Shown: one piece after another, positions 7,095 through 28,014 of the stretch
How positions within the stretch are numbered: position 1 is the stretch's first letter
Layout of the letters: every line of letters begins with the position of its first letter
Source of the DNA: Clostridiales bacterium
GTDB lineage: Bacteria; Bacillota; Clostridia; Oscillospirales; CAG-272
DNA length: 56,732 bases
Assembly (NCBI GenBank): GCA_016281775.1
Contig: JAEEJH010000127.1
Location: forward strand, 1-56,732
Direction of reading: 5' to 3'
Made by a program: the position numbers and the translations under genes
Notes under the pieces: model-generated
Database searches by the model: none
The model's input: only the letters and a program-made list of their open reading frames with translations
What the model was told of the DNA's origin: nothing

Positions 7095-9641
7095 TCACTT
7101 TACGACTATCTCAGCTATCGCGGCTTTGACCGAACCGAAAGTAATGCGGAGCCGGTCTGAGTCGGCGATCTTGTCTTTGATATCCAGGATCAGCCATTCG
7201 TGATCCGTATCGGGCATTGTAACGTCGTTTTGTTTGCCCGACTTGTCGATCAAAGAGACGCTTACGCCGTTAGTATGGAGCAGAAACAGCTTTATCTCCG
7301 ATCTGCCGGTCAGATCGATCTCGATCGTTTTGCCGCGCACGGAAGAAGCAGAGGGTGAAAACACCGTAAACAGACTCTTGTCAAACAGTGAACGCAGGTC
7401 TGCGCCGCCGTCAAAGCTGACACCTTCGGGCAGATCGAAGCTCGATCTGATCTCGAATTCCGTTATGATTATCCAGTAGACCTGGTGCTGCAGACAGCGT
7501 ACGCGGACGTAACGGGCGCTGAACGGCTCTTCGCTCTGCGTATCTCTGCCTGCCGTATCGCAGAGTCTGGTATAATTTTTGCCGTCGGCCGAATATTCGA
7601 TCACGCCCTTGGCTATATAGTCGGTTGCGTGATCGTCCGTACCCATTCTGAGTCGGACTGACGAAACGTCCGTAACATCGCCGAGATCGACCGTGAACGT
7701 ACTGTTAGCCGCCGGTTCGCCCGCCGACCAGAACCACGTCGAATCGTCGCCGTCTACGGCGTAAGAAGTATGATAATCGGCATACGTATTGAGAGTCGTG
7801 GACGCTTTCATATTCCTGATCGCTTCGGCTTTGCCGAACACGGAATTGATCTTCTGCCTCGCAGACGACAAAAACGGCGTGAGCACGTCGGGGCTGACGA
7901 CGCACTCGCTCTTTTCGATCTCGGCGTAAGCGTGCGCAAACGACATTGCATAGCTCTCTTTTTCGTCTTCGCCCGCGGTCGAGAACCGCACGTACGCCTT
8001 TGCGGCGTCGACGTAAAGCTCCGCTTTTTTCAGCCACGGCTTCACTTCTTTTATCAGTTTTTTATCGCCTTTTTCAAGCAGATCGGCAAGAGCTTTTGCG
8101 GTCTGATCGAGTTTTTCAAGCAGTTTTCCGGCGGCGCCGTCCTTGTTTTTATTGAAATCTTCTATTTCGGTTTTCAGGGTAAACGTCGACTTGCTGCCGT
8201 TTATCGCCGTGTTCCGCGTGAGGTCCGTAAGCGTGTAAAGCCCGTCGGAGCATTCCGGTGCGATGATCTTCACCGCTTTGTTCAAAGCCTCTTCGGGCTC
8301 GTAAGTTATCGGATCCCACAGATAATCGGCGACCGTTATGAGCGGCAGAAACGAGGCGTAGCCCTGATTCATCGGGTTCGAGACGAGACCGGATACAGCG
8401 GTATCGAGTTTACTGTCGAGGTTTTCGCACGGACCCATAAAGAGCTCGTTCACCGCGTAGTCGTTGACCGGGTAGTTCCACCAGATATACATCTTTCTTC
8501 CGAATTTGGAGTTTACGTTCGCCATCTCCGCCGCGCTTATCGACGGCGGGATCACGCCGTAACCGGTCCACATTATCATTATATCCGGATCTATCAGCGG
8601 CGCGATCTTGTTGGAATAACCCGTCATCGTCGCCGTGCAGAATTCGGGCGTGATCATGATAAGATCAGTGCATCCGTCGTGCGTTTTTACGAATTTGCTC
8701 TGAAAATCGTTCACAAGCTTTGCATGTCCCTGCGCGTCGAGCGTCGGTATATCGTCGAGCAGTATCGCAAAATCACGCACGCCGAGGCCGTACATCGACT
8801 CGCACTTTTCGACAAGCTTTGCAAAATCGGTATCATACCCCGCTCCGAGATCCATATCGAGACCGGGAGACAGAGCGTATACGAAATGCACGTTGTTTTC
8901 GGTCGCGCATTTTATGAGCTCGTTCATTTTTTCGAGCTCTCTGCCGGTATACAGACTTCGCCACTCCGAACGGTGTTTAGGATCGTCCTTCGGAGCGTAG
9001 ATATACGTATTGAGTTTATATTTGCCCATAAACGCGAACAGATCGAGGCGGTACTGATGAGTCCACGTTTCGCCGTAGAAGCCTTCGATGACGCCGCGGT
9101 ACGGCACGGCGGGCGTATCCGTTATCTCCGCGGCGGCAAGCCTGCCGTTCCACCGCAGCTGAGCGAGAGTGGATACGGCGTAAAACACGCCGCGCCTGCC
9201 TGAAGCGGTTATTTCGATACCGCTCTTTTTCACGTTAAGCTTATATTCCTCTTCGCCGAGCGCCGGATCGGCGGTTATCTTTGCGTGAAGGCCTCCGCCG
9301 CCTTCTTCACACGAGAAGCCGAACGAGGTGAAAACGCTTCCGTAATCGTTGAGATCGCTTTTATCGAGCGTTATAAGACCGCAGTCTGCCGTGTCCGATC
9401 CGTTTTCCGATATCTTCGCGTTCAACGGTTCGGGCATGAGGTCGAGGGTGAACGTTACGCCCTCGTAAGGATCGGTATATTCGGTCTCGGCGGGCTGAGT
9501 GACTTTTTCCGTCTGCGCCGGTTCGGTGCTCTTTCCGGTCCCGACCGTATCGGTCCCCGGAGCATCCGCCGGCGTACATGCGGCGAAGCTTAACAGCATC
9601 ACGGCGGTCAGTATCAGCGACGTTATTCTTCTGTATGACAT
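7095..9641 (-). CDS. Lipoprotein beta-N-acetylglucosaminidase (GH84) with F5/8-type C (CBM32-like) domain
   Basis: Start revised to 9641 (RBS GGAGG; the TTG at 9701 is the -35 box); lipobox LSFAAC; RGVIEGFYG, YIYAPKDDP, FAILLDDI, WWNYPVNDY; C-terminal AVDGDDSTWFWS..FTVDLG. Confidence 0.88.
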   Translation of the reverse strand: MSYRRITSLILTAVMLLSFAACTPADAPGTDTVGTGKSTEPAQTEKVTQPAETEYTDPYEGVTFTLDLMPEPLNAKISENGSDTADCGLITLDKSDLNDYGSVFTSFGFSCEEGGGGLHAKITADPALGEEEYKLNVKKSGIEITASGRRGVFYAVSTLAQLRWNGRLAAAEITDTPAVPYRGVIEGFYGETWTHQYRLDLFAFMGKYKLNTYIYAPKDDPKHRSEWRSLYTGRELEKMNELIKCATENNVHFVYALSPGLDMDLGAGYDTDFAKLVEKCESMYGLGVRDFAILLDDIPTLDAQGHAKLVNDFQSKFVKTHDGCTDLIMITPEFCTATMTGYSNKIAPLIDPDIMIMWTGYGVIPPSISAAEMANVNSKFGRKMYIWWNYPVNDYAVNELFMGPCENLDSKLDTAVSGLVSNPMNQGYASFLPLITVADYLWDPITYEPEEALNKAVKIIAPECSDGLYTLTDLTRNTAINGSKSTFTLKTEIEDFNKNKDGAAGKLLEKLDQTAKALADLLEKGDKKLIKEVKPWLKKAELYVDAAKAYVRFSTAGEDEKESYAMSFAHAYAEIEKSECVVSPDVLTPFLSSARQKINSVFGKAEAIRNMKASTTLNTYADYHTSYAVDGDDSTWFWSAGEPAANSTFTVDLGDVTDVSSVRLRMGTDDHATDYIAKGVIEYSADGKNYTRLCDTAGRDTQSEEPFSARYVRVRCLQHQVYWIIITEFEIRSSFDLPEGVSFDGGADLRSLFDKSLFTVFSPSASSVRGKTIEIDLTGRSEIKLFLLHTNGVSVSLIDKSGKQNDVTMPDTDHEWLILDIKDKIADSDRLRITFGSVKAAIAEIVVK

Positions 9642-15478: not shown

Positions 15479-15487
15479 TCCAAACTG

Positions 15488-15525
15488 AAAGACCCGGGGC
15501 GGCTATGTGCCGACCCGGGCTTTTT
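15488..15525 (+). terminator. Intrinsic terminator
   Basis: CCCGGG-G-CGGC/GCCG-A-CCCGGG stem followed by CTTTTT. Confidence 0.75.
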
Positions 15526-15546
15526 GTTATGCTTACGTATAAACGC

Positions 15547-15575
15547 TTGACATTTCGCGATACGTATGATAAAAT
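15547..15575 (+). promoter_or_regulatory. sigmaA promoter with extended -10, pointing antisense into the XRE gene and toward the kinase
   Basis: TTGACA 15547-15552, 17 nt spacer, TG-A-TAAAAT 15567-15575. Confidence 0.7.
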
Positions 15576-15594
15576 GGGTTACACGGCCGCAAGC

Positions 15595-16023
15595 TTACTG
15601 AAATATCTCGATATTTCTGTCAAACAGCATACAGTTCAGTTCGATAACGGTCATTTTCTTCGTCATTGCGTATATTACGGCGTTATCTCTGACGTTTTTG
15701 GCGTAAAGAGGCCCGTATCCGGTTATCTTCAAAAGGTCGTTCGCTTCGTCAGGACTGAGTCCGATCGCGATGCACAGCATTATCATTTTATCGCGTGACG
15801 GAGTTTTTATACCCGAAAAGATCTGATATGCGTAATGCTCTTCAATACCGGAACGGGCGATGACTTCGGACTTTTTCAGGCCGGTTTCCGCTATCAGCGT
15901 ATTCAACGCCGTGTGCGGAGCTGCCGCGGCGGAAATATTCTCACCGTTCGCCCGCAGATACTCCTCATAGTCTTTACTGCTTTTCATCAGTTCGATAAGC
16001 TCTTTCGTCGTTTTTTTGCTCAT
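15595..16023 (-). CDS. XRE-family HTH transcriptional regulator
   Basis: KKSEVIARSGIEEHYAYQIFSGIKTPSRD HTH; RBS AAAGG. Confidence 0.8.
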   Translation of the reverse strand: MSKKTTKELIELMKSSKDYEEYLRANGENISAAAAPHTALNTLIAETGLKKSEVIARSGIEEHYAYQIFSGIKTPSRDKMIMLCIAIGLSPDEANDLLKITGYGPLYAKNVRDNAVIYAMTKKMTVIELNCMLFDRNIEIFQ

Positions 16024-16063
16024 AAACGTACCTTTCGTTCAAAGTTTTTCGGAGGTGTTTTAT

Positions 16064-17134
16064 TTGAATAATTCCGATTATCTGAAGATCTACGATTCTC
16101 TTGAAGTGATCAAGAATTTCAACGCCGCGACTCAGCTGTGCATCGATCCGTCGACCGACCGTTTATATACCGTCAAGCGATGCGATATTTCGATGCTGAA
16201 CGTGTTTGAGCCTCTTACGGGCAGGATACTGCCGAACATACCGCCGGTCCGCCACGTTTCGGAAAAGAACGGTTATATCGAGGTAATGTCGGATTACGTA
16301 TCAGGCACGCCTCTCTGCGACGTTTTAACGCAATACGGCAGCATACCCGAAAAGCAGGCGGTTTCGTACGCGTTAGATATCTGCACGGCGCTCGAGTCGC
16401 TGCACGGCATGAATATCATCCATCGCGACGTTAATCCGAACAACGTGGTGATAACGTACGACGGTCACGCGGTGCTCATAGATTACGGCATAGCGCGGGA
16501 ATTCAAAGACGGCAGACCGAAAGACACCGTGATCCTCGGCACTCCCGGTTACGCCGCCCCGGAGCAGTTCGGCTTTGCGCAAAGTGACGCAAAGACCGAT
16601 ATATACGCGCTGGGCGTTCTTTTGAACGTAATGATCACGGGCGCGGGACCTGATATAAAAGTGACGGAAGGATATTACGGACGCGTTGTTGAGCGCTGTA
16701 TATCCATAGACGCCGCGAAGCGGTACGGATCGGCGTCGGCGTTAAAAAAGGCTCTGAAAAAACACGGCGCCGATTTTAAAGAGAAAGCGGAACATTTCTT
16801 TTCACTCGTACCGGGCGTCAGAACGAAAAACCCGTTTCTGATATTCGTTTCGATCGTCGGTCACGCGTTTCTGATCCACTATTTTGCCACAGTTATGAAA
16901 AACAACTTTCAGACGGTCGGCCCGGGGGAACAGGACAACAGTCTGTTCGGTATGATCGGTTACAGCCTGTTTCAGCTTTTTCTTTACGCGTCGTTTTATA
17001 CGTTTGCGTTCAATCCCGCAAACGTCTGGCAATACCTGCCCTTGAAAAATTCCAAGCCGTGGGTACGCAGATTCGTCTTCACACTTATCGCGCTGACTTT
17101 TCTGAGCCTGTTATTCCGTTCCGTGAACGGTTGA
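16064..17134 (+). CDS. Hanks-type Ser/Thr protein kinase with C-terminal TM helices
   Basis: Start revised to TTG 16064 (RBS GGAGGTG); VKR, IIHRDVNPNN, LIDYG, GTPGYAAPEQ, DIYALG; three hydrophobic C-terminal segments. Confidence 0.9.
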   Translation: MNNSDYLKIYDSLEVIKNFNAATQLCIDPSTDRLYTVKRCDISMLNVFEPLTGRILPNIPPVRHVSEKNGYIEVMSDYVSGTPLCDVLTQYGSIPEKQAVSYALDICTALESLHGMNIIHRDVNPNNVVITYDGHAVLIDYGIAREFKDGRPKDTVILGTPGYAAPEQFGFAQSDAKTDIYALGVLLNVMITGAGPDIKVTEGYYGRVVERCISIDAAKRYGSASALKKALKKHGADFKEKAEHFFSLVPGVRTKNPFLIFVSIVGHAFLIHYFATVMKNNFQTVGPGEQDNSLFGMIGYSLFQLFLYASFYTFAFNPANVWQYLPLKNSKPWVRRFVFTLIALTFLSLLFRSVNG

Positions 17135-17173
17135 CGGCTTGCCGATCCGTTTATAATTTTACTCGGATCATAT

Positions 17174-17213
17174 CTTCGCGGTTATGCTGCCGGCATAACC
17201 GCGAAGTTTTTTT
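17174..17213 (+). terminator. Intrinsic terminator after the kinase
   Basis: Perfect 14-bp stem CTTCGCGGTTATGC/GCATAACCGCGAAG followed by T7. Confidence 0.9.
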
Positions 17214-17266
17214 AATCTGTTACGTATTATACCGCGGCCCGGATGAAAAATCAATACGTAATAATC

Positions 17267-17297
17267 AAAAAATTATGCCGTGAGCATAACACGGCAC
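17267..17297 (-). terminator. Probable terminator of the small XRE gene
   Basis: Minus strand GTGCCGTG/CACGGCAT stem followed by AATTTTTT. Confidence 0.55.
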
Positions 17298-17347
17298 GGT
17301 TTTTTTCATATACAATATCCGACAAAGAACGGACGTTGTCTTTCCCG

Positions 17348-17566
17348 TCAGTTTTTCGGATATCTTGTCCTGACGTCAGTCTCGCCGAGCAGGTAGTCGA
17401 CGCTTGTTTTATAGAAACGGGCGAGTTTGATAAGTATGGCGGTAGGTATATCGTTCTCTCCCGTCTCGTATTTTGAGTAACCCGTCTGCGACATATTGAG
17501 CATCTTTGCGACCTGCGTCTGATTTAGATCGCTGTCCACCCGCAGATCCCGTATTCTCTTATACAT
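17348..17566 (-). CDS. Small XRE (HTH_3) transcriptional regulator
   Basis: RIRDLR..LNQTQVAKMLNMSQTGYSKYETG..P..LIKLARFYKTSVDYLLG; RBS GAGGTG. Confidence 0.92.
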   Translation of the reverse strand: MYKRIRDLRVDSDLNQTQVAKMLNMSQTGYSKYETGENDIPTAILIKLARFYKTSVDYLLGETDVRTRYPKN

Positions 17567-17584
17567 TCAGCTCACCTCTTTCTT

Positions 17585-17646
17585 AACTTATAATTATAAG
17601 TTTTTTAAAGATAACTATTGACATTTAACCTGTAACAGGTTATAAT
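17585..17646 (+). promoter_or_regulatory. sigmaA promoter for the zinc-ribbon operon with two palindromic operator candidates
   Basis: TTGACA 17618-17623, 17 nt spacer, TATAAT 17641-17646; perfect palindrome AACTTATAATTATAAGTT 17585-17602; TAACCTG-TAA-CAGGTTA 17626-17642. Confidence 0.8.
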
Positions 17647-17691
17647 ATTGTCGTAAAACCGTTTTTCGGAGATTTCGAACGGAGGGAAGAA

Positions 17692-18441
17692 ATGAAACAT
17701 CATACGCTCTTTTGCTCGCAATGCGGTTCACCTTACACTACCGACGGCACGAGAGAACATGTTTACTGCCCGCAATGCGGTCATAAGAATCCCGGAAAAC
17801 CGCTTTTTGAGAGCGGCAATACCTCCGGAAAGATCCGCGTGATATCCTGCCCGTCGTGCGGCGCGGACGTACTGTTCAAAGACGACAGCGGTACTGCCGT
17901 CTGCGAATACTGCGGTTCGACGCTTATGGAGGACCGGACTGTCATAGTTAACAAATATATCGACGAAACGAAGATAAAAGAGGCCGAAGCGAAAGAGAGA
18001 TTGCGCCTGAAAGAACTTGAACATGAAAAGGAAATGGCGGACCGTATAGAAAAGCAGGATGAAGAAAACGCCCGCCGCTCAAAAAAGCTGGCAAAAGCGG
18101 CGTTATGGTTCGCGGGAGGGTTCGGCTATGCGGCTTTTATCGTATGGGCAATCGCTGAACATAACGGCGAAAGCTATTCTTTTGCAGAGACGATGCTGAT
18201 TTTCCTTGCAGTAATGTCTTTATTATTGGCGTTTTTGAGCGGTACCGCACCTGTCCGAAACAGCAGTCATTCACAAAACCGTTATTCGTTCGGCGAACCG
18301 GGCGAAAGAAAAGAAACGCCTGTTGAAACGCAAAGCGAAAATAAAGGCGGCAAAGATATCGCGGTTGCCGCCGGTAAGATCATCGGCGGAATAGCGGTGA
18401 CTGGGGCAATAGCAGGACTGATCAAAAAACTCCTCAAATGA
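17692..18441 (+). CDS. Double zinc-ribbon membrane protein
   Basis: CSQCG, CPQCG, CPSCG, CEYCG, then a charged coiled coil, two TM helices and a hydrophobic C-terminal helix; RBS GGAGG. Confidence 0.75.
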   Translation: MKHHTLFCSQCGSPYTTDGTREHVYCPQCGHKNPGKPLFESGNTSGKIRVISCPSCGADVLFKDDSGTAVCEYCGSTLMEDRTVIVNKYIDETKIKEAEAKERLRLKELEHEKEMADRIEKQDEENARRSKKLAKAALWFAGGFGYAAFIVWAIAEHNGESYSFAETMLIFLAVMSLLLAFLSGTAPVRNSSHSQNRYSFGEPGERKETPVETQSENKGGKDIAVAAGKIIGGIAVTGAIAGLIKKLLK

Positions 18442-18462
18442 TTTGATCCGGGTGATTTTAAT

Positions 18463-18972
18463 ATGAAATACTGTTCAAAATGCGGCGCCGCTGTCCATAC
18501 CGACAAAGACTCCTTTTTCTGCACCGAATGCGGAGCAAAAAACGGTCCCGGAGCAGCTGCCGAAAAGGCAGAAAAAAGCTCCGAAATGAAATCTGTGGTA
18601 TTCGCTTTTCTTTTGAAAAATCTGAAATACATCGTTCTCGGAGTTGCTCTTACGTTTACGACCGTTTTCTTTCTTATATATGCCAATACCGGACCCGGTA
18701 ATACTTTACAGCCCGACGAGGTAAGGATATCTTTCAGCAGCTATAACGTCATATCCGAAAACTTCGAGGACGTTGTTCTGAGGTTTAAATCCGAAGGATT
18801 CGAGAATATCGAAACGATACCTTTGGGAGATATGGCGAGAAACGAGACTTATTTTTTCGACGAGCACGACGTTGAAAAGGTTTCGGTGAACGGAAAAACG
18901 CGTTTTTCGGAAAAAGACGTTTTCAAAAAAACCGATCCCGTAAGGATATCGTATCATTCGTATAAAGAATAA
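18463..18972 (+). CDS. Zinc-ribbon, single-TM protein with a small extracellular domain
   Basis: CSKCG..CTECG, TM segment, then ENFEDVVLRFKSEGFENIET..VEKVSVNG..VRISYH. Confidence 0.75.
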   Translation: MKYCSKCGAAVHTDKDSFFCTECGAKNGPGAAAEKAEKSSEMKSVVFAFLLKNLKYIVLGVALTFTTVFFLIYANTGPGNTLQPDEVRISFSSYNVISENFEDVVLRFKSEGFENIETIPLGDMARNETYFFDEHDVEKVSVNGKTRFSEKDVFKKTDPVRISYHSYKE

Positions 18973-19004
18973 AATGATTTAAGAACATAATAAAGGAGAA
19001 AAAT

Positions 19005-19925
19005 ATGAAATTCTGTATGAAATGCGGAAAGCAATGCGACGACGGCGACGCTTTCTGCAGAAATTGCGGTCAGCTCTTTCCGAATAGTGAAGCCGAGCCG
19101 CAAGCGTCTCAGACGACATTCACGCCATCCCCGGAACCGGCGCCGGCTACGGTCGCCGCAGTTACACCGAAAAGCTCGTTTTTTTCAGCTGCGGGATCTT
19201 CGAGGTACCTTACGGGCGCTATATTCGCCTCGGTAAGCTTTTTGTTCGGCATACTCAGCATACTGAACGTAAATCGCGTTATCTCCGCGATAATTGACGG
19301 TACGACGTGGTGGGCAAAAGGTTTGAGCGAATGGTTAGGCGCTGGAGACGTATGGTCGTTTATCACGGACAGTCTGAAATCGTTCATTTTCATTATTTAT
19401 CTGATTCCGTACACCCCTATCATCATTCTTCTCGCGGGGATCTGGATAGTATACGGCGGCGGAAAAGCGAAAGCGTCAAAGACTGCCAAGACCGGCACAG
19501 TCATAGTTCTCGTCATAGCCTTCATTTACTACTTGATCAATGAGATCCTGCCCGTACTTCTTATCGTTTCTTCGTTTTTCATGAATTCGACCGAACAGGC
19601 CGACGTTGCGGCGTTATTCAGTATTTCGATCATATGGGCGGTTCTCGTCACCATGATATTCCTGCCGCTAATCATATTGGGATTCAAAATGATAAAAGCG
19701 CTGAGAGACGTCCCCGCCAAATCGTACGGGACAGGTTGGGCAACGGCTTCGCTTATAGTCGTCGGATGTATAGCCTGCCTTGCAGCACTGCCGTTGCTGT
19801 TTTTCGCATGGTTAATGATGTTCTCCGTCATATTCGGCGCTGTTGCGTGCTTTATCTTTGCCGGAGCCGTCAGCGATTACAACAAATCGGTTAAGAACAG
19901 CTCCGTTCTCAGTAACGGTTTATAA
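19005..19925 (+). CDS. Zinc-ribbon polytopic membrane protein
   Basis: CMKCG..CRNCG, P/T-rich linker, about 6 TM helices; RBS AAGGAG. Confidence 0.75.
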   Translation: MKFCMKCGKQCDDGDAFCRNCGQLFPNSEAEPQASQTTFTPSPEPAPATVAAVTPKSSFFSAAGSSRYLTGAIFASVSFLFGILSILNVNRVISAIIDGTTWWAKGLSEWLGAGDVWSFITDSLKSFIFIIYLIPYTPIIILLAGIWIVYGGGKAKASKTAKTGTVIVLVIAFIYYLINEILPVLLIVSSFFMNSTEQADVAALFSISIIWAVLVTMIFLPLIILGFKMIKALRDVPAKSYGTGWATASLIVVGCIACLAALPLLFFAWLMMFSVIFGAVACFIFAGAVSDYNKSVKNSSVLSNGL

Positions 19926-19956
19926 TCCGTTCCGTTATCGGGGACATTACAGAAAC

Positions 19957-20058
19957 AACGCCGGAACAGGTGAGCTCTGTTCCGGCGTTATCGATTGTTA
20001 TACAAATTTTGTTTTTTAGCCCGTTTTGCCGCCGCGACAGTTTTCGGCGGCGTTTTAT
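19957..20058. terminator. Two hairpins between convergent genes
   Basis: 13-bp perfect stem 19957-19969/19977-19989; GCCGCCG/CGGCGGC stem 20028-20051 with T-rich flanks. Confidence 0.65.
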
Positions 20059-20062
20059 TGTC

Positions 20063-22675
20063 TTATTTTTTGAAAATATCGAATATCGAGCGGCGTTTCG
20101 GGGTGGAGTTCATCATATCGTTGAACTTTTCGGCGAGCGTATAATCGTCGGCAAACGCTGTTTTTGCGTCTTCTTTGAGTTTATCGATACGCTTCTGGTT
20201 GAGTTTATGTACCTGATACGATATCTCCTGAGTCTCTTCAAGGCCGAGTCTGGTGAACGCGAAGCGCAGGAATTTGCAGAACTCGGCGTAGTCGCTGTCG
20301 TTCTTGCCGGCGCTTAACAGTTCGCGGCAGAATTCCTCCGTAAATTTGACCGACTGCGCCGTTGACAGACTGAACATATCGTAAACCGTCTTTATCTCGT
20401 CGGATCCGGTGTTTTCGGTAAATACGGGGAGCAGTCCGTCGAGGAACGGCAGAGCTTCGTCGTCGGAGAACTGCGTGAGATTCACTCTCTCATCGGCGGT
20501 GAGCTCCATGAGCTCGTCCCGCGCGGCGGCGTAGTCCTTACGGTTCTTTATAGCCCTGACTCTGACGCCGAATACGAGGCAGAGCAGTTTGCCGCTGATA
20601 CGTTTTTCCTGTATCTTCGTGACGTATCTCTGTACCTCTTTGATCTTGGCTTCGGTCTCTTTGCTTCGGTCGGAAAGCTTTATACCGGAAACGATGCCGG
20701 CGACGATCTCATCGGACGATGCGGTCGTAATGTCGTTGACAGAGAGGATATCGAAGAGCAGCTCTTCGGCTTCTCTTATATCGCCGGGTTTTTTCTTCTT
20801 GAATACCGCGTAATACGTCTCCATGGCCTCGCACATATAAGCCTCGTAATACGGAGGACACACGGCGAAATAACCGGAATAATGCTCGTTGAACAGATCC
20901 GTGAGTTTTTTCATATCGAACGTATTGAGCATACGCGAGAACACGTCCCACATGAGATCGTATTTCTCCGCAGCCGATAAAAAGTCGAACAGTTCTCTTC
21001 TCTTTTCGGCAAGCCCGTCGGCGGCCGTATCGGCGAACGCTTTGTTGAGGTTCACGAGTCTCGCGGTGTTGTCGGCGCCCGCGGTAATGCTTTCGAGCGT
21101 CTCTTCGACCGTGCAGAATCTCTTCACGTCGTCGGCGTAAGAAACGAGTATCGATTTCGAAGCTTCTTCATCGGCGCCGCAGGCGTATCTTTCAGCCGCG
21201 GCGTCGGCAAGGAATTTGCCAATGGGCTCGTTCGCCATGAGGTTTTCGTAACCGACGTTGTGTTTGTGAACGTATTCCGATATCAGATTGAGCACGAAAT
21301 TGGCTTTCCACTCGATATGCTGATATTTTATCACGAGCAGCAGCGCGCTGCTGCTCTTTGCCGATACGAGTTCGCCGCAAAGATCAATACCGCAGAAATC
21401 GCAGAGCTGGGTGACGTTCTTATAGTACGACGAGAACGAAGCGGACGTCGCGTCCTTGAAATACAGCATTATCGGCACCGAATCGACCGCGAGCGATCTG
21501 AAGCCGTTCTTTATGACGAGTGACGCGTCCTTATACACGCCGGCTATGAATACGAGCAGTTTTTCTACGTAATCCGCGCCCCAGCCGAGTACGGTCTCGC
21601 TTACGCGGATGATCGATTCGGCGAGCAGGAGCTTGCCGCTGTAACGGGCGTATTTGCCGGAAAAACCGGATATGACGGCGAACTGGCCCGCGCCGACGCT
21701 CTTGAAAGCCTCGGGCGAGAACGCGCCCGAAGCGCGGTACATCAGATACGCGCCTGCAAGCTCGGGGGCGATCTTTTCAAGATCCGTATATATATCGAGA
21801 TACGCGTGGAACGCTCTGATCTTATCGTAATCGTGCAGCATTGCGTCTTCGTAGAACGCCATAAGTTCGTTTTCAGCCGCGTTGGGTTCGGGCAGCTCGC
21901 AGAGCACGCCGGACGTTATGTCGAACACGGCGAAGCCTTCTTTTTCCGCATAGCTCTCGTTATAACCGGTGCATTTCGCGGTAACGCCGCAGACGTCGAC
22001 GTCAGCCGTTTCGGGATCGTAGGCGTACGTCGAGAACGATATGTTTTTCGCAAACGAACGCGGCATGGCGTAAGAAAGCGCCGTTATCCAGAGCACTATA
22101 TTCTCCTGTTCGTCGCAGATAACGAGCTTTTTGCCGTACTCATCCTTATGCATCAGCGCGCGGAACATCTTTTTGAAAACGCCGAAATTGCCGTCCGCCC
22201 CGAGGAATTTCATCACTTTGTTTACGCTCACCGCGCCGGACGGTTCTATCACCGGTTCGGGCAGATATGCCGCGCCGGTCTCGGTATAAACCATCATTCT
22301 CGGCGGCTGTGTGAAGAACATCGGCGAACCGATGAGATCGCACGGGTAAAGCGAAGTATCGCCGTCGCCGAAAAGCACGCTGTGGCTGATATGGTCGTCT
22401 CCGTCCCCGAACGGGTTTTTGCCTAAAAACGCCGATCTCGTGACAGCGTATTCGCCCTTGCCGCATCTGTAAGTATAAGAAACGGGGAGGTACGAGATGA
22501 TCCTCTCGGTCAGCTCTACGCCGTCGCCGAGTTCGGGCGCTTTGTAGGCGAAAAGCGAATCGCCGAACCCGTTGTTATATGGAAAGTTTCTGTCGGCGCT
22601 GACTACGCCGAAGCCGGCTTCACCGCCGAAAAGGCCGCATTTGCGGCAGCTGTGCAAAATCTGATGTAAACTCAT
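20063..22675 (-). CDS. GAP1-N2/GAP1-M-like domain protein (GTPase-associated protein 1 family) with a long helical C-terminus
   Basis: N-terminal HQILHSCRKCGLFGGEAGFGVVS..LPVSYTY..ISHS and KLVICD..LWITALSYAMP..ISFSTYAYDP resemble PF20013/PF20014 as recalled; not HMM-verified. Confidence 0.65.
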   Translation of the reverse strand: MSLHQILHSCRKCGLFGGEAGFGVVSADRNFPYNNGFGDSLFAYKAPELGDGVELTERIISYLPVSYTYRCGKGEYAVTRSAFLGKNPFGDGDDHISHSVLFGDGDTSLYPCDLIGSPMFFTQPPRMMVYTETGAAYLPEPVIEPSGAVSVNKVMKFLGADGNFGVFKKMFRALMHKDEYGKKLVICDEQENIVLWITALSYAMPRSFAKNISFSTYAYDPETADVDVCGVTAKCTGYNESYAEKEGFAVFDITSGVLCELPEPNAAENELMAFYEDAMLHDYDKIRAFHAYLDIYTDLEKIAPELAGAYLMYRASGAFSPEAFKSVGAGQFAVISGFSGKYARYSGKLLLAESIIRVSETVLGWGADYVEKLLVFIAGVYKDASLVIKNGFRSLAVDSVPIMLYFKDATSASFSSYYKNVTQLCDFCGIDLCGELVSAKSSSALLLVIKYQHIEWKANFVLNLISEYVHKHNVGYENLMANEPIGKFLADAAAERYACGADEEASKSILVSYADDVKRFCTVEETLESITAGADNTARLVNLNKAFADTAADGLAEKRRELFDFLSAAEKYDLMWDVFSRMLNTFDMKKLTDLFNEHYSGYFAVCPPYYEAYMCEAMETYYAVFKKKKPGDIREAEELLFDILSVNDITTASSDEIVAGIVSGIKLSDRSKETEAKIKEVQRYVTKIQEKRISGKLLCLVFGVRVRAIKNRKDYAAARDELMELTADERVNLTQFSDDEALPFLDGLLPVFTENTGSDEIKTVYDMFSLSTAQSVKFTEEFCRELLSAGKNDSDYAEFCKFLRFAFTRLGLEETQEISYQVHKLNQKRIDKLKEDAKTAFADDYTLAEKFNDMMNSTPKRRSIFDIFKK

Positions 22676-22700
22676 ATATTTTCACCTCATAAGAGTAATT

Positions 22701-23165
22701 TCATTGCATTCTGAGCAAAATCTCAAGCGTCTCGGCAGGGTCGGTCTTCGCCGCGACTTTTGTTCTCGCAGAGACGATCATGCCGTTTTCGTCGATGATA
22801 TACGTCGTTCTGACCGTGCCGTAACTTGTTTTGCCGTACAGTTTTTTCTCGCCCCATGCGCCGTACGCTTTGATCATGATAAGTTCCGGATCGGAAAGGA
22901 GCACGAACGGCAAAGCGTGTTTTTCTTCGAATTTCTTATGCGACTGCACCGTGTCGCGGCTCACGCCGACGACCTCCGCACCCGCCGCTTTGAACTTTTC
23001 GTAAAGTTCCGCATAGCCGAGCGCCTGAGCGGTACAGCCGGACGTATTGTCTTTTGAATAGAAATACAGGACGGTTTTTTTGCCCGCAAAGCCGTCGGAC
23101 GTACGTATTCTGCCGTTCTGATCCGGCAGAGCGAAGCCGGGGGCTTTTTTGTTTATTTCAAACAT
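22701..23165 (-). CDS. bcp: Peroxiredoxin, BCP/PrxQ family
   Basis: APGFALPDQNG, LYFYSKDNTSGCT, VVGVSRD, LLSDP, RTTYIIDENG. Confidence 0.9.
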   Translation of the reverse strand: MFEINKKAPGFALPDQNGRIRTSDGFAGKKTVLYFYSKDNTSGCTAQALGYAELYEKFKAAGAEVVGVSRDTVQSHKKFEEKHALPFVLLSDPELIMIKAYGAWGEKKLYGKTSYGTVRTTYIIDENGMIVSARTKVAAKTDPAETLEILLRMQ

Positions 23166-23695
23166 CTTCCGTAACCTCCTATACCGTCAAGAGAGACGTA
23201 AATGATCTTTTTGTCAAGTTTTTTAGCCATTTCGACGGTGTTTTTAGTACCGCCGGGCTGTATGCGGTCTTCACTGCAGACGGCTATGAGCCCGTCGCAT
23301 TTATTCACCATATAGCGGTTGCGCTCGTTATAGAGTTTCGGATAATCCGACGGGACGGCATTCCGGCACAGAATTATCCTCCCGTTTGCATTTTTAATGA
23401 CTTTGTCGTACAGACCGAGCTCTTCGCGCGGTACCGTCTGCCTCTGCCCGTCGAACGGGACGGCGCACCAGAGTTCGATACCGAGTTTGCCGCGCAGCGA
23501 CAGCACGGCGTCTGCGGCGATAAGGTCCGAGCCGCGGCACATACCGGTCAAAAAATATTTCACGCCGAGTTCCGCCTGCTCGGCGACGGTCTGCATTATA
23601 CGCGCTTTGAGGCGCGCGGCGTTGGTCCCGGTCAGCGGAAAAGGCAGTTTTTCCGTTCTGTAACCGGTGAACGCGAGTGAAATATATCTGCCCAT
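23153..23695 (-). CDS. SLOG-superfamily protein (YpsA/DUF1273-like)
   Basis: AFTGYR, FLTGMCRGSDLIAA, AVPF, RNRYMVNKCD, GGTKNTV. Confidence 0.85.
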   Translation of the reverse strand: MGRYISLAFTGYRTEKLPFPLTGTNAARLKARIMQTVAEQAELGVKYFLTGMCRGSDLIAADAVLSLRGKLGIELWCAVPFDGQRQTVPREELGLYDKVIKNANGRIILCRNAVPSDYPKLYNERNRYMVNKCDGLIAVCSEDRIQPGGTKNTVEMAKKLDKKIIYVSLDGIGGYGRCLK

Positions 23696-23785
23696 CGCTG
23701 CTCCGATCTTTCTTAGTAACTATATTATAAACTATAATTTCCCAAAAATCAATACCTAAATCACAATGAAAATAAACTTTTTTTC

Positions 23786-23814
23786 TTGACAAGCGTGATT
23801 TCACGTGATATAAT
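23786..23814 (+). promoter_or_regulatory. sigmaA promoter for rbfA-mnmG-transketolase
   Basis: TTGACA 23786-23791, 17 nt spacer, TATAAT 23809-23814. Confidence 0.85.
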
Positions 23815-23849
23815 ATTATGAATTATTATGGAATACGATCGGAGACGGT

Positions 23850-24260
23850 ATGGGTAAATACAGAATACAGAGAATAAACGATGAGATCGTGAAAGAGATG
23901 GTACGGATACTGCGCGATATAAAAGATCCGAGGGTGACCGGGAGCATGACGACCGTCACGGGATGCGACGTATCGCCGGATCTGAAATACGCGAAGATCT
24001 ATTTCTCTTTTCTCGATCCGGTTAAGTCGCCGGAAGAGGCGGAGCAAAGACGCGCGGAGATCAAAAAAGGTCTCGTCTCGGCTCACGGATTCATAAGACG
24101 CGAACTTGCCGCTTCGCTCAACCTGCGCGTAACGCCGGAGCTGACTTTCATAGCCGACACCTCCGCCGAATACGGCAGCGAGATAAACAGGATCCTTAAC
24201 GAGATCAAAACGGAAGACGAACAGCGCAAAAAAGAAAGCGGCGAAAACGGCGAAGAATGA
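23850..24260 (+). CDS. rbfA: 30S ribosome-binding factor RbfA
   Basis: RIQRIN..IKDPRV..VSPDLKYAKIY..GFIRRELA..LRVTPELTFIADTSAEYG. Confidence 0.95.
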   Translation: MGKYRIQRINDEIVKEMVRILRDIKDPRVTGSMTTVTGCDVSPDLKYAKIYFSFLDPVKSPEEAEQRRAEIKKGLVSAHGFIRRELAASLNLRVTPELTFIADTSAEYGSEINRILNEIKTEDEQRKKESGENGEE

Positions 24261-24319
24261 CGCGGCTCGCCCGCGTATCCCGACGCGGCAAGATCAAAAA
24301 CGGTTTAAAGGAATGATAG

Positions 24320-26200
24320 ATTACGAAAGACAATGACAGATATACGCTCGGGCGCTGCGACGTCGCGGTGGTAGGCGCCGGTCACGCCGGCATAGAAGCC
24401 GCGCTCGCCTCGGCAAGGCTCGGGCTCGATACGATATTATTCACGATGAATCTCGACTCGGTCGGGAATATGCCGTGCAATCCGTCGATAGGCGGTACGG
24501 GCAAAGGTCATCTCGTATTCGAGATCGACGCGCTCGGCGGTGAAATGGGCAGAGCGGCGGATCTCGTGACGCTCCAGAACAGGATGCTCAATTCGGGCAA
24601 GGGTCCCGCCGTACATTCGAAACGCGTACAGGCGGACCGCGCGGCTTATCACGTTCTGATGAAACATACGCTCGAAACGACGGATAATCTGCGGCTTTAT
24701 CAGACTGAAATAACCGACGTTCTGGTCGAAAACGGCGCCGTCTCAGGCGTCGTAACGGCGCTCGGAGCCGTATTTGAATGCAAAGCCGCGATAATCTGCG
24801 CCGGCACGTATCTGAACGGCAGGGTGATCGTGGGCGAACACGCGTACCCCTCCGGTCCGGACGGGCTTCTGCCGGCGAATTCGCTCACCGCTTCGCTCAT
24901 ATCGCTCGGTATCAAAACGATGCGGTTCAAGACCGGCACTCCGCCGAGAGTGCTCAAGTCGAGCGTGGATCTCGGCAAGCTTGAAATACAGCACGGCGAT
25001 ACGGATATACCGTTCTCCGCGCTGACGGACGAAGAAGAACTTGCGAAGCGGCCGGATATACCGTGTTATATCGTATATACTAATGAAAAAACGCATGAGA
25101 TCATAAGATCGAACCTTCACCGATCGCCGCTTTTCAGCGGGATGATAGAGGGCGTGGGACCGAGATACTGCCCGAGCATAGAAGACAAGGTCGTGAGATT
25201 TGCAGATAAGGAACGGCATCAGCTTTTCGTCGAACCGCTCGGAGAGAATACGGAAGAGTTATATATCCAGGGCTTCTCTTCTTCTCTGCCCGCTGACGTA
25301 CAGGTGCAGATGCTGCACACGCTGCCGGGCTTCGAGCACGCGCTGATAATGCGTCAGGCGTACGCGATAGAATACGACTGCATCGACCCGACGCAGTTAT
25401 ATCCGACGCTCGAATTCAAGGATATAAGCGGTCTGTACGGCGCCGGGCAGTTCAACGGCACGTCAGGCTACGAAGAGGCGGCGGCTCAGGGGCTGATCGC
25501 CGGCATAAACGCCGCGCTGAAAATCAAAGGCGAAGAGCCTCTGATACTGTCGAGGATGGACGCTTATATCGGCGTACTGATCGACGATCTCGTCATGAAA
25601 GGGACGAACGAGCCGTACCGCATAATGACGTCGCGCAGCGAATACCGGCTGATACTCCGTCAGGATAACGCGGACGAACGGCTCACGCCGGAAGGTTACC
25701 GCGTCGGGCTGATAAGCGAAGAAAGATACGAAAAATTCAAAGAGAAACAAAGACGCATCGAAGCGGAGATACAGCGTGCGGAGCTGACGACGGTCAAAGC
25801 GTCGGATGAGCTGAACCGCGTTCTCGAAGAAGCCGGAACGGCGCCGCTTTCGGCGGGCATAAGACTTGCCGAACTGCTCAGACGCCCTCAGGTGACGTAC
25901 GGTCTGATAACGGAATTCGATCCGACGCGCACAGAGAGCAAGCGGATACTGCAGTGCGCGCAGATACGGATAAAATACGAAGGTTACATCAAAAAACAGC
26001 TTGCCGCCGCCGAGCGGCAGAAGAAGCTCGAGAACAAAAAGATACCCGAGGGGCTCGATTATTCGAAAATACCGGGGCTCAGGCTCGAAGCTCAGGCTAA
26101 ACTGAACGCGATAAGACCGAAAAGCATAGGGCAGGCGGCGCGCATAAGCGGCGTATCGCCCGCGGACATCTCGGTTTTACTTATAAGATTAGGCGAATAG
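24320..26200 (+). CDS. mnmG: tRNA uridine 5-carboxymethylaminomethyl modification enzyme MnmG (start uncertain)
   Basis: [75 protein letters not shown]; frame open upstream of GTG 24368 back to the TAG at 24317-24319. Confidence 0.93.
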
Positions 26201-26211
26201 AGAGGTAAACT

Positions 26212-27054
26212 ATGAACACTGAAAAGAAAAAAGAACTGATGCGTCTCGCGGCGCATATACGCATGGATATACTGACGGAAGTTTATTCCGCCAATTCGGG
26301 CCATCCCGGCGGCTCGCTTTCGATAGCCGACACGCTCGCTTATCTTTACAGCGAGATACTCCGCGTCGATCCCGAAAATCCCGACTGGCCCGAACGCGAC
26401 AGATTCGTGCTGTCGAAAGGCCACACCGCGCCGGCGCTGTACGCGGTGCTTGCGGAATGCGGATTCATACCCAAAGAAGATCTCACGGGATTCAGAAACA
26501 TAAACAGCTATCTGCAGGGTCACCCCGATATGAAGCATACGCCGGGCTGCGATATGACGTCCGGTTCGCTCGGCCTCGGCATATCCGCCGCGGCCGGCAT
26601 GGCGCTCGGAGCGAAGGTACAGGGCAAGGATTTCCGCGTTTACGCGATGCTCGGCGACGGCGAGCTTGCCGAAGGGCAGGTATGGGAGGCGTCGATGTTC
26701 TCCGCCCACTACAAGCTCGACAACCTCTGCGCATTCGTAGATTGGAACGGTTTACAGATCGACGGCAGGATCGTCGACGTTATGAATTCAACGCCGATCG
26801 ACAAGAAGTTCAGAGCATTCGGCTGGTACGTACAGGTGATAAACGGCCACGATTTCGATCAGCTCGAAAAGGCCGTTGCGAACGCCAAAAAGACTAAAGG
26901 GCGTCCGTCCGTGATAATACTCAAAACGATAAAGGGCAAGGGCGTTTCGTATATGGAAGACAAGGCGAGCTGGCACGGAGCCGCGCCGAACGAAGAACAG
27001 TATAAACTCGGCATGGCGGAGCTTGACGCCGCGCTGCACGCTATAGACGCGTAA
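26212..27054 (+). CDS. Transketolase, N-terminal subunit
   Basis: SGHPGGSLS, DRFVLSKGH, LQGHP, GSLG.G, GDGELAEG..WEA TPP-binding motif. Confidence 0.93.
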   Translation: MNTEKKKELMRLAAHIRMDILTEVYSANSGHPGGSLSIADTLAYLYSEILRVDPENPDWPERDRFVLSKGHTAPALYAVLAECGFIPKEDLTGFRNINSYLQGHPDMKHTPGCDMTSGSLGLGISAAAGMALGAKVQGKDFRVYAMLGDGELAEGQVWEASMFSAHYKLDNLCAFVDWNGLQIDGRIVDVMNSTPIDKKFRAFGWYVQVINGHDFDQLEKAVANAKKTKGRPSVIILKTIKGKGVSYMEDKASWHGAAPNEEQYKLGMAELDAALHAIDA

Positions 27055-27069
27055 GGGAGGTACCGGAAA

Positions 27070-28014
27070 ATGGCAGACAAAAAAGCAACGAGAGAAGCCT
27101 ACGGAGAGGCTCTTGCCGAATTCGGCGCAAAATACGATAAATTAGTGGTGCTCGACGCGGACCTCGCGGGCGCGACCAAAACGGCGACGTTCAAAAAAGC
27201 GTTTCCGGACCGTCACTTCGACTGCGGCATAGCCGAAGGCAATATGGTGTCTGCGGCGGCGGGACTTGCGACTACGGGACTGATACCGTTCGCTTCCTCA
27301 TTTGCTATGTTTTTGGCGGGCAGAGCGTTTGAGCAGATCAGAAACTCCATCGGTTACCCGCATCTCAACGTAAAACTCGGCGCGACGCACGGCGGCATCA
27401 CGGTCGGCGAAGACGGCGCGACGCATCAGTGCCTTGAAGACTTTTCGGTAATGAGAACGATACCGGGCATGACGGTGATCTGCCCAGCCGACGCGACGGA
27501 AACGCGCGCGGCCGTAGAAGCGGCGATCAATTACGTCGGTCCCGTTTACCTGCGTTTCGGCCGCGCCGCGACGCCGGTACTCTTTGACAAAGAATCGTAT
27601 AAATTCGAGATCGGCAAGGGCGTCGTAATGGCGGACGGAGCCGACGTGACGATAGCGGCTAACGGCTATATGGTGGACATAGCGCTGCAGGCGAGAGAAC
27701 TTCTCAAAGCCGACGGCGTCGACGCGGCGGTATTGAACATCCACACGATAAAACCGCTCGACAGCGGTCTGATACTGTCGTACGCGGCGAAGACCGGCGC
27801 GATAGTCACCGCGGAAGAACACAACATCATCGGCGGCCTCGGTTCGGCGGTATGCGAAGCGGTATCCGCCGTGTACCCGGTACCTGTGCTTCGCGTAGGC
27901 GTGAACGATCAGTTCGGCAGAAGCGGCAAGGTGCCGCCGCTGCTCGAATACTACGGGCTGACCGCTCAGAACATAGCCGAAAACTGCAAAAAGGCGATAG
28001 GACTCAAGAGATAA
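27070..28014 (+). CDS. Transketolase, C-terminal subunit
   Basis: ATREAYG, LDADL, GIAE, RAFEQIR, GEDGATHQ, PVYLRFGR, TAEEH. Confidence 0.93.
   Translation: MADKKATREAYGEALAEFGAKYDKLVVLDADLAGATKTATFKKAFPDRHFDCGIAEGNMVSAAAGLATTGLIPFASSFAMFLAGRAFEQIRNSIGYPHLNVKLGATHGGITVGEDGATHQCLEDFSVMRTIPGMTVICPADATETRAAVEAAINYVGPVYLRFGRAATPVLFDKESYKFEIGKGVVMADGADVTIAANGYMVDIALQARELLKADGVDAAVLNIHTIKPLDSGLILSYAAKTGAIVTAEEHNIIGGLGSAVCEAVSAVYPVPVLRVGVNDQFGRSGKVPPLLEYYGLTAQNIAENCKKAIGLKR

Follow-up and report, generated by a model that had tools for sequence, protein, structure and literature searches.

A group of membrane-associated Ser/Thr (pseudo)kinases from Firmicutes or Actinobacteria has been catalogued as the DYD family (bioRxiv 10.1101/2025.01.12.632604; reviewed in PMC12599244). 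These proteins keep the aspartates of HRD and DFG, have DYD in place of DFG and carry arginine instead of the beta3 lysine in ~60% of cases (bioRxiv 10.1101/2025.01.12.632604; PMC12599244). The review also describes a family-specific asparagine in the catalytic loop (PMC12599244). The family is partly annotated as pseudokinase, and the DYD papers, which treat the kinase domain alone and leave its activity open, give no function, helix-turn-helix (HTH) partner, operator or zinc-ribbon partner (PMC12599244). A kinase whose family probably belongs to this group (compared by the published description) is encoded in a 4.6 kb accessory island (15480..20062) of the 56,732-nt stretch of contig JAEEJH010000127.1 (assembly GCA_016281775.1) analysed here, hereafter the window. 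The island lies between a 564-aa surface-protein gene and a GAP1-like gene and contains xre1, the kinase gene, xre2 and three zinc-ribbon membrane protein genes (ZR1, ZR2 and ZR3). It is interpreted, with a probability of roughly 0.6, as a variant of a conserved Firmicutes signalling cassette with a core of XRE1 and a Hanks-type kinase that lacks the glycine loop. This explanation builds on gene and operator co-occurrence, operator position, natural variants and catalytic-residue conservation, all of which were observed directly.

The present kinase family resembles the DYD family in its overall pattern: among 70 relatives, the beta3 position is R in 34/70 and K in 29/70, and the third DFG position is D in 38 and N in 25. 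The window kinase differs in retaining the beta3 lysine (K38) and in having DYG rather than DYD.

The nearest named gene is lmo0618 of Listeria monocytogenes, for which there is no published mechanism. The product, Lmo0618, is a putative kinase of 380 aa that carries a membrane region at its C-terminus (PMC4379056), and deletion of its gene reduces intracellular replication in Caco-2 cells (PMC3091722). The kinases of three Listeria loci found here (L080, L082 and L085) are probable orthologues of Lmo0618 on the basis of length, species and genome position. As in the window, each locus has a kinase (371-383 aa) divergent from an XRE1 homologue, with an operator at the kinase 3' end. Unlike the window, the downstream gene at L082, the only locus checked in this respect, encodes a DUF5067 lipoprotein instead of zinc-ribbon proteins, and in the Listeria kinases the catalytic loop retains its lysine (HRDIKPSN) and DFG reads DFD.

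PASTA-type kinases such as PknB of Mycobacterium tuberculosis and PrkC of Bacillus subtilis share with the window kinase their fold (PknB is the best match) and presumably a role in envelope signalling. The window kinase, however, has neither PASTA nor any other outer domain, lacks the glycine loop and the catalytic-loop lysine, and is paired with a dedicated HTH protein, encoded next to it, that has an operator of its own. A separate PASTA kinase is encoded elsewhere in this genome (contig C49). CD2148, an atypical second Hanks kinase of Clostridioides difficile, is of uncertain activity, and no autophosphorylation was seen in vitro; S134 and S139 stand in place of its catalytic Asp and Asn (PMC9674922). 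It is membrane-anchored and devoid of PASTA domains, like the window kinase, but no XRE1-type partner has been reported for it. Because the catalytic Asp and Asn are invariant in the present family, CD2148 was rejected as a member.

A different parallel is offered by membrane anti-sigma/sigma pairs such as RsgI-SigI of Clostridium thermocellum, which occur as several paralogous modules per genome. In these, a single-pass membrane protein combines a small N-terminal domain in the cytoplasm with a variable sensing domain outside the cell, and is paired with a dedicated regulator that controls nearby genes. The present modules differ in that an XRE-type HTH protein takes the place of the sigma factor, a kinase is interposed and the cytoplasmic domain is a C4 zinc ribbon.

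The initial annotation of this DNA knew of no characterised system with such a layout, and a literature search for the gene combination likewise found no paper. Nor did the searches return a paper that deals with the XRE1 family, the operator or the zinc-ribbon partnership, or any published function, partner or DNA target for this kinase type. The kinase family is probably already catalogued but unstudied, and the cassette is widespread in gut Clostridia and Listeria. New here are the membrane-fused variant, with its zinc-ribbon outputs, and a natural series of three states at a single site. The analysis yields a testable circuit comprising a regulator family, a 15-23-bp operator and output genes. 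The family bears on whether glycine-loop-less kinases are active enzymes, and may show how bacteria assemble receptor kinases from separate polypeptides.

Conserved features of the cassette

Co-occurrence of the genes was assessed with an XRE1-alignment scan of one genome per species, which gave 80 loci from other species of Oscillospiraceae, Acutalibacteraceae, Lachnospiraceae, Eubacterium and Listeria. Among the 45 XRE1 loci with at least 4 kb of sequence on both sides, a kinase is present in 40, a gene for a transmembrane (TM) protein with an N-terminal zinc ribbon in 38 and both in 33. In 41 relatives, the presence of kinase and XRE1 is concordant in 37 (both in 8, neither in 29, kinase only in 3, XRE1 only in 1; Fisher p 1.4e-5). 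Of the ten zinc-ribbon-TM open reading frames (ORFs) in this genome, six are no more than 3 kb from its three kinases of this type (binomial p about 6e-11). The co-occurrence of this kinase type with zinc-ribbon membrane genes, for which the initial annotation had suggested a neighbourhood test, therefore extends across many genomes. Clustering of the neighbouring genes gave four recurrent families: XRE1, the kinase, a single-pass zinc-ribbon protein (ribbon ending C..CM) and a small classical HTH_3 protein. XRE1, which the initial annotation had missed as a core component, is found at full length in roughly one in eight sampled Clostridia genomes, often in multiple copies, and also in Listeria.

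The single-pass zinc-ribbon protein has variable outer domains, with BspA-type leucine-rich repeats (LRR_5) in 21/59. It is found beside 50/58 soluble kinases and 0/5 membrane-bearing ones (p 1.8e-4), and none was seen in four further membrane-kinase loci (L094-L097). Its presence with soluble kinases and absence from membrane-kinase loci support a split receptor for the soluble type and indicate that the window kinase needs no such partner.

The genome that contains the window has three modules, and thus two XRE1 paralogues. The two other modules, one on C162 and one across the joined contigs C42 and C92, each consist of genes for an XRE1-like protein, one or more single-pass zinc-ribbon proteins and then a soluble kinase. 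The C162 module (18875-27236) encodes an XRE1-like protein, a 490-aa zinc-ribbon protein and a soluble kinase with YRD and beta3 Arg; two tandem TAAGC-N5-GCTTA sites lie upstream, and it adjoins genes for a large BspA-type-LRR-like protein and a type I restriction R-subunit-like protein (both identified by eye). Contigs C42 and C92 overlap end to end, the start of C92 being the reverse-complemented start of C42; joined, they contain an XRE1-like gene, two tandem zinc-ribbon protein genes (462 and 470 aa) and a soluble kinase gene.

A palindrome, TAWGC-N5-GCWTA, often extended to GTCC...GGAC, accompanies XRE1 loci. It has 65 matches in 27.5 kb of module windows and 16 in 929 kb elsewhere (137-fold enrichment), and at least one copy is present at 62/80 XRE1 loci. 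This genome has 11 matches, including two at the window module and two at the C162 paralogue; the exact form TATGC-N5-GCATA occurs at five sites in the 2.58-Mb genome, two of them in the window. These two sites, O1 (TATGCTGCCGGCATA; 17183-17197) and O2 (TATGCCGTGAGCATA; 17274..17288), lie just 3' of the kinase gene and ahead of the ZR genes. O1 forms the loop-proximal part of a hairpin with a U-run (17174..17206, +; fold energy -25.2 kcal/mol, z -6.2) that was identified by a terminator scan and is the likely kinase terminator. O2 overlaps a weaker two-way hairpin; ~22 nt beyond O2, the + strand has a -10-like TACAAT. Palindrome position varies with gene arrangement. In operon-type loci it abuts the -35 box of the xre1 promoter, whereas at loci where xre1 and the kinase gene diverge it lies immediately 3' of the kinase stop codon, with a -10 box ~22-27 nt further on that faces the downstream genes. 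The latter layout is found with membrane-fused kinases (window, L094, L095, L097 and Listeria) and also with soluble ones in Lachnospiraceae. In four Lachnospiraceae loci (L036, L067, L068 and L025; ~7160-7210, minus strand), the -10 box after the operator is in a hairpin loop followed by a T-run (ACTGCCTGTCATTATAATGATGATAGGCAGTTTTT), and a promoter element is therefore embedded in a terminator-like structure.

Three states of the site were found in nature. In a same-genus genome (G005:C27) the site is empty, and the surface-protein and GAP1-like genes are 138 bp apart. A related contig (L093) has only xre1, O1, O2 (at 1663) and a ZR3 orthologue, without the kinase and without xre2-ZR1-ZR2; window region 17151-17317 is conserved there between xre1 and ZR3. 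Relative to L093, the window thus has two separate extra segments, the kinase gene (~16018-17150) and the cassette (~17318-19000). The O1 hairpin and U-run persist in L093 although no gene lies upstream, which hints that the kinase was lost from L093 rather than gained in the window. The hairpin around O2 is not conserved in L093, although O2 itself is. This series (empty; regulator and output; regulator, kinase and added cassette) shows that the parts are modular.

Within the kinase ORF (16016-17134, +), a GGAGGTG box precedes a TTG codon at 16064. With the start picked by this ribosome-binding site, the likely product (16064..17134, +) is a 356-aa kinase with a kinase domain (residues ~1-235), a conserved juxtamembrane motif and hydrophobic C-terminal helices (257-355). 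It scores 100.2 bits against Pkinase (PF00069; cut-off 31.7), aligned only over profile positions 58-196, the C-terminal two thirds of the profile. The two-lobed kinase fold is present in the AlphaFold2 model (predicted local distance difference test [pLDDT] 86 overall, ~97 over the domain), for which the top Foldseek matches are PknB 2fum (E-value: 8e-15), 1mru and 1o6y, with E-values of about 1e-14.

Catalytic residues were compared in alignments of the 70 family relatives and of 62 close full-length relatives, the membrane-fused subfamily. As the initial annotation reported, the HRD (HRDVNPNN), DYG and APE (AAPEQ) motifs are intact and GxGxxG is absent; no glycine-rich loop is found in any of the 70 family or 62 subfamily members, and the window kinase reads IKNFNAAT. 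A feature overlooked by the initial annotation is that HRDVNPNN departs from the HRDxKxxN catalytic loop, the lysine being Asn. Because the subfamily consensus is HRDINPNN, this loss is a family trait and not decay. D122 and N127 of the loop, D140 of DYG, G159, T160, A164, E167, Q168 and the alphaF Asp are invariant in the family alignment, and the alphaH-I Arg (R220) is nearly so. The alphaC glutamate (E49) is present in the window kinase and conserved only in part across relatives. Two subfamilies can be distinguished. Soluble kinases have ~235 aa, HRDIKPEN, DFD or DFN and, at beta3, either K or R. Membrane-fused kinases, among them the window kinase, have ~350 aa and a consensus with HRDINPNN, DYG, a near-invariant beta3 Lys (K38 of YTVK in the window), a conserved juxtamembrane motif (IPGLRS) and a helical membrane domain that is likewise conserved. 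The invariance of the HRD-Asp, the Asn and the DFG-Asp argues for phosphotransfer activity even without the glycine loop and the catalytic-loop lysine.

XRE1, encoded by xre1 (15595-16023, -), defines the family, forms the core of the module and presumably binds O1 and O2. It is a 142-aa divergent XRE-type HTH protein with helical extensions N- and C-terminal of the core. The only Pfam matches of XRE1 are sub-threshold ones to HTH_26/HTH_31 (17.1 bits; cut-off 22); the family has no Pfam model, and a weak HTH match is found in just 3/51 members. The AlphaFold2 model (pLDDT 92.9) contains a standard five-helix XRE core that can be superposed on ClgR, C.AhdI and the N-terminal domain of DdrO (TM-score to target of 0.7-0.8 across ~65 residues), and a profile search of solved structures gave only a weak XRE match (3op9, E-value: 0.017). 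The recognition-helix region (E-x-Y-x-Y-Q-I-F) is invariant at E62, Y64, Y66, Q67, I68 and F69. Residue 63 covaries with the half-site flank, H being found with GTTATGC and I with CCTATGC or ACTAAGC. An invariant Thr of the N-terminus (MKKTTxEL) was considered as a phosphosite; it is the helix-1 N-cap in the model, may be purely structural and is a candidate only.

Weaker XRE1-profile matches occur in many Clostridia in proteins of ~340 aa, the C-terminal part of which matches XRE1 residues 30-140. The one inspected (L098 1696-2721, genome G321) is a 341-aa protein with an N-terminus that is Macro-like by eye and an XRE1-like C-terminal domain; it was rejected as a member of the module. These proteins suggest that the XRE1-type HTH with its extension is a reusable module.

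Proposed circuit and competing explanations

The proposed model for the island is as follows. XRE1 would bind O1 and O2 and control transcription into ZR3. After insertion of xre2-ZR1-ZR2, transcription driven from O1/O2 would also cross ZR1 and ZR2, and the inserted cassette would additionally have its own xre2-controlled consensus promoter. The conserved helical domain would anchor the kinase in the membrane, where it would sense an envelope or membrane cue; the membrane-anchored kinase probably modulates XRE1, altering its activity through phosphorylation or binding. The xre1 and kinase genes, with starts 40 bp apart, may be made as long overlapping antisense transcripts that exclude each other, because strong promoter-like sites lie beyond the far end of each gene. 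One predicted site (15547..15575, +; TTGACA-17-TAAAAT with TG) is just past the xre1 3' end and reads antisense through xre1 toward the kinase gene; equivalent near-consensus, TG-extended predicted promoters are found at the corresponding position of two further membrane-kinase loci (L094 5490-5517 and L097 5471-5499). The other predicted site (17226..17254, -; 10/12 matches) lies between O1 and O2 and is directed toward the kinase and xre1 genes; in the kinase-less L093, it would be the promoter region of xre1 itself.

ZR1-3 would be the output of this switch. They are more likely to be regulated outputs than sensors because they lie downstream of an XRE1-linked operator and because ZR3 of L093 is directly behind the operator in the absence of a kinase. 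An output role is also favoured by Lachnospiraceae loci that repeat the order of operator, small antisense HTH gene and zinc-ribbon-TM array. In the sister loci with soluble kinases, the single-pass zinc-ribbon protein, with its variable outer domain (often of BspA-type LRR), would provide the membrane and sensor part. A bolder and rather improbable extension is a split receptor-kinase pathway in Gram-positive bacteria in which the cytoplasmic C4 zinc ribbon would be a universal plug joining varied membrane proteins to one pared-down kinase. XRE1 would induce new ribbon-tagged proteins, allowing the cell to rewire its receptor repertoire, and antisense transcription would make the switch bistable.

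Several observations weigh against the signalling-cassette interpretation. A kinase without the glycine loop and the catalytic-loop lysine could be a pseudokinase scaffold. The covariation of XRE1 residue 63 with the half-site is suggestive, though subfamily ancestry confounds it, and the conservation of O1 could in part reflect its role in a strong terminator hairpin; the palindrome sequence is nevertheless conserved far beyond terminator needs, from Listeria to Oscillospiraceae. The downstream gene in most membrane-fused kinase loci encodes a 4-TM protein or a lipoprotein and not a zinc-ribbon protein, and the ZR link is therefore lineage-specific in that subfamily. Finally, xre2-type cassettes also exist without a kinase, and xre2-ZR1-ZR2 may have landed here by chance.

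The initial annotation proposed that the ribbon is a shared tag on interchangeable sensor bodies, possibly phosphorylated by the kinase; as weighed here, the ribbon would be a docking tag and ZR1-3 would be membrane sensors which recruit the kinase or are phosphorylated by it. This is doubtful, although parts of it have merit. Zinc-ribbon-TM genes are strongly enriched beside these kinases, a single-pass zinc-ribbon protein whose ectodomain varies is nearly obligate at soluble-kinase loci, often in the same operon, and the membrane bodies behind the ribbon are mutually unrelated and exchangeable. A docking role would also be compatible with the output model if the induced ZR proteins fed back on the kinase. 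The ZR genes, however, look like outputs behind an operator, and ZR3 is kept with xre1 and both operators in the kinase-less L093. The near-obligate partner is of another type (single-pass, C..C-C..CM), is found with soluble kinases only and is absent from the membrane-fused subfamily (0/5, and also L094-L097), and a conserved membrane domain is built into the window kinase itself. ZR1-3 bear the generic C..CG ribbon rather than the partner-type C..CM, and ZR1 and ZR3 have little or no outer domain. The S/T/P-rich linker that the initial annotation described in ZR3 is present, but its Ser and Thr are not conserved in the 69%-identical orthologue, so phosphorylation of the linker is without support and it was rejected as a phospho-acceptor.

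An anti-phage or toxin-antitoxin-like island is improbable; the kinase would then act as a toxin or sense infection, the XRE proteins would serve as antitoxins or controllers, and the ZR proteins would be abortive-infection effectors. In its favour, the island is somewhat AT-rich and is an accessory element whose site is empty in a congener; its neighbour is a GAP1-domain gene of conflict type, the C162 paralogue adjoins the restriction-like gene mentioned above, and some Lachnospiraceae copies are near recombinase-like and toxin-antitoxin-like genes (by eye). The defence role suggested by the initial annotation nevertheless gains nothing from PADLOC-DB 2.0, which gives only generic kinase (PD-T4-6, mad6 and Stk2) and HTH matches and none for XRE1, ZR2, ZR3 or the GAP1-like protein. 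Pfam, NCBIfam and PADLOC scans of all genes found no defence system or named family beyond generic domains, and domain scans found no nuclease, NADase or pore-type effector domain. Genomes have up to three paralogues, and three Listeria species have the kinase divergent from XRE1, with an operator at its 3' end and, in L082, the DUF5067 lipoprotein gene next. The ectodomains of the single-pass partners face outward (LRR_5 in 21/59), whereas most defence sensors are intracellular, and xre1 and the kinase gene are divergent rather than a co-transcribed toxin-antitoxin pair. A HipBA-type kinase toxin-antitoxin was rejected for the latter reason and because the kinase is of the Hanks type and not of the HipA fold.

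That the genes are unrelated neighbours brought together by chance, O1 and O2 being mere terminators of the kinase and xre2 genes, is very improbable. The O1 hairpin is indeed strong and followed by a U-run, O2 overlaps one that is weaker and two-way, the kinase gene and the xre2-ZR1-ZR2 cassette are independently missing from L093, and xre2-type cassettes are found elsewhere without a kinase. Chance is contradicted by the gene co-occurrence statistics, and the motif sequence itself, not just the hairpin, is conserved from Listeria to Oscillospiraceae and enriched 137-fold. The palindrome also occurs upstream of xre1 in operon-type loci, where it abuts the -35 box and no terminator is needed, and L093 keeps O2 but not the O2 hairpin. 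In addition, Dorea-type and other Lachnospiraceae loci have a mirror-image arrangement of xre1, kinase, operator, a small antisense HTH_3 gene and an array of unrelated zinc-ribbon membrane proteins, the small HTH_3 genes being at the position equivalent to xre2. The recurrence of this order makes it unlikely that the arrangement is a one-off accident.

Zinc-ribbon genes, the xre2 cassette and flanking genes

All six genes listed by the initial annotation, which covered 15595-19925, were recovered at the same coordinates. Its description of the operon as AT-rich is borne out, although the difference is modest: the GC content at third codon positions (GC3) ranges from 0.47 to 0.63 in the module and from 0.64 to 0.69 in flanking genes. 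ZR1 (17692-18441, +) encodes a 249-aa protein with two N-terminal zinc ribbons (four CxxC), a charged helical stretch and three hydrophobic segments. The ZR2 product (18463-18972, +; 169 aa) has one zinc ribbon, one TM segment and a ~100-aa outer domain, and the gene has the lowest GC of the island (GC3 0.47). ZR3 (19005-19925, +) encodes a 306-aa protein with one zinc ribbon, a P/Q/A/S/T-rich linker and six TM segments. The predicted numbers of about one, three and six TM segments were thus correct, but the gene order is three (ZR1), one (ZR2) and six (ZR3). Gaps of 21 bp (ZR1-ZR2) and 32 bp (ZR2-ZR3) fit the proposed operon.

CxxC-(n)-CxxC motifs are present in all three proteins, which share the zinc ribbon and are otherwise unrelated, as had been noted. 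In a test of zinc-ribbon profiles including PF13240, PF13248 and PF08271, ZR1 passed the threshold (Zn_Ribbon_TF; 31.6 against 29), while ZR3 (24.9 against 25) and ZR2 (23.2 against 25) fell just under it. No homologues of ZR1-3 beyond the ribbon were found among the 80 related loci. A search of 5.8 billion proteins gave only one homologue of ZR3 (69% identity), the gene of which comes directly after xre1 and the two operators of L093, and at L088 a ZR3-like 6-TM zinc-ribbon gene adjoins a 55%-identical xre1 orthologue. Of the genes that now follow the XRE1 operators at this site, ZR3 appears to be the ancestral one.

The xre2-ZR1-ZR2 cassette (~17318-19000), absent from L093, lies just after the O2-associated -10 box. 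The product of xre2 (17348-17566, -) is a 72-aa protein of the classical repressor type (HTH_3, E-value: 2.8e-14). Upstream of ZR1 is a predicted operon promoter with 12/12 consensus matches (TTGACA-17-TATAAT; 17618..17646, +), the spacer of which is filled by an inverted repeat with perfect 7-bp arms (AACCTGT-A-ACAGGTT; 17627-17641), the presumed xre2 operator. Homologues of xre2 (~80-90% amino acid identity) control other envelope-protein operons without a kinase, and the cassette is therefore regarded as a unit of its own. At L101 (2000-3995; G008:C180), a close xre2 homologue is divergent from two Cys-rich lipoprotein genes just after genes that resemble those for ribosomal proteins L11 and L1, which shows that xre2-type cassettes insert at unrelated sites.

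The gene usually found behind the operator in membrane-fused kinase loci encodes a small conserved 4-TM protein (MKTAKLVIGIISMVLF...; L094 7313-7699, L095 7146-7511, L096 5449-5859 and L097 7128-7571). This protein is absent from the window, and the one member scanned (L094) has no Pfam match. In 2/4 of these loci (L094 and L097) the gene is followed by that of a ~300-aa lipoprotein.

The GAP1-like gene (20063-22675, -), which is convergent with ZR3, encodes an 870-aa protein with GAP1-N2 and GAP1-M domains, which are associated with GTPase-centred conflict systems; there is no GTPase nearby. It still adjoins the bcp and SLOG/YpsA genes in L093, and in the island-less G005 its 3' end comes directly after the surface-protein gene. 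Because it keeps these neighbours, the GAP1-like gene lies outside the island.

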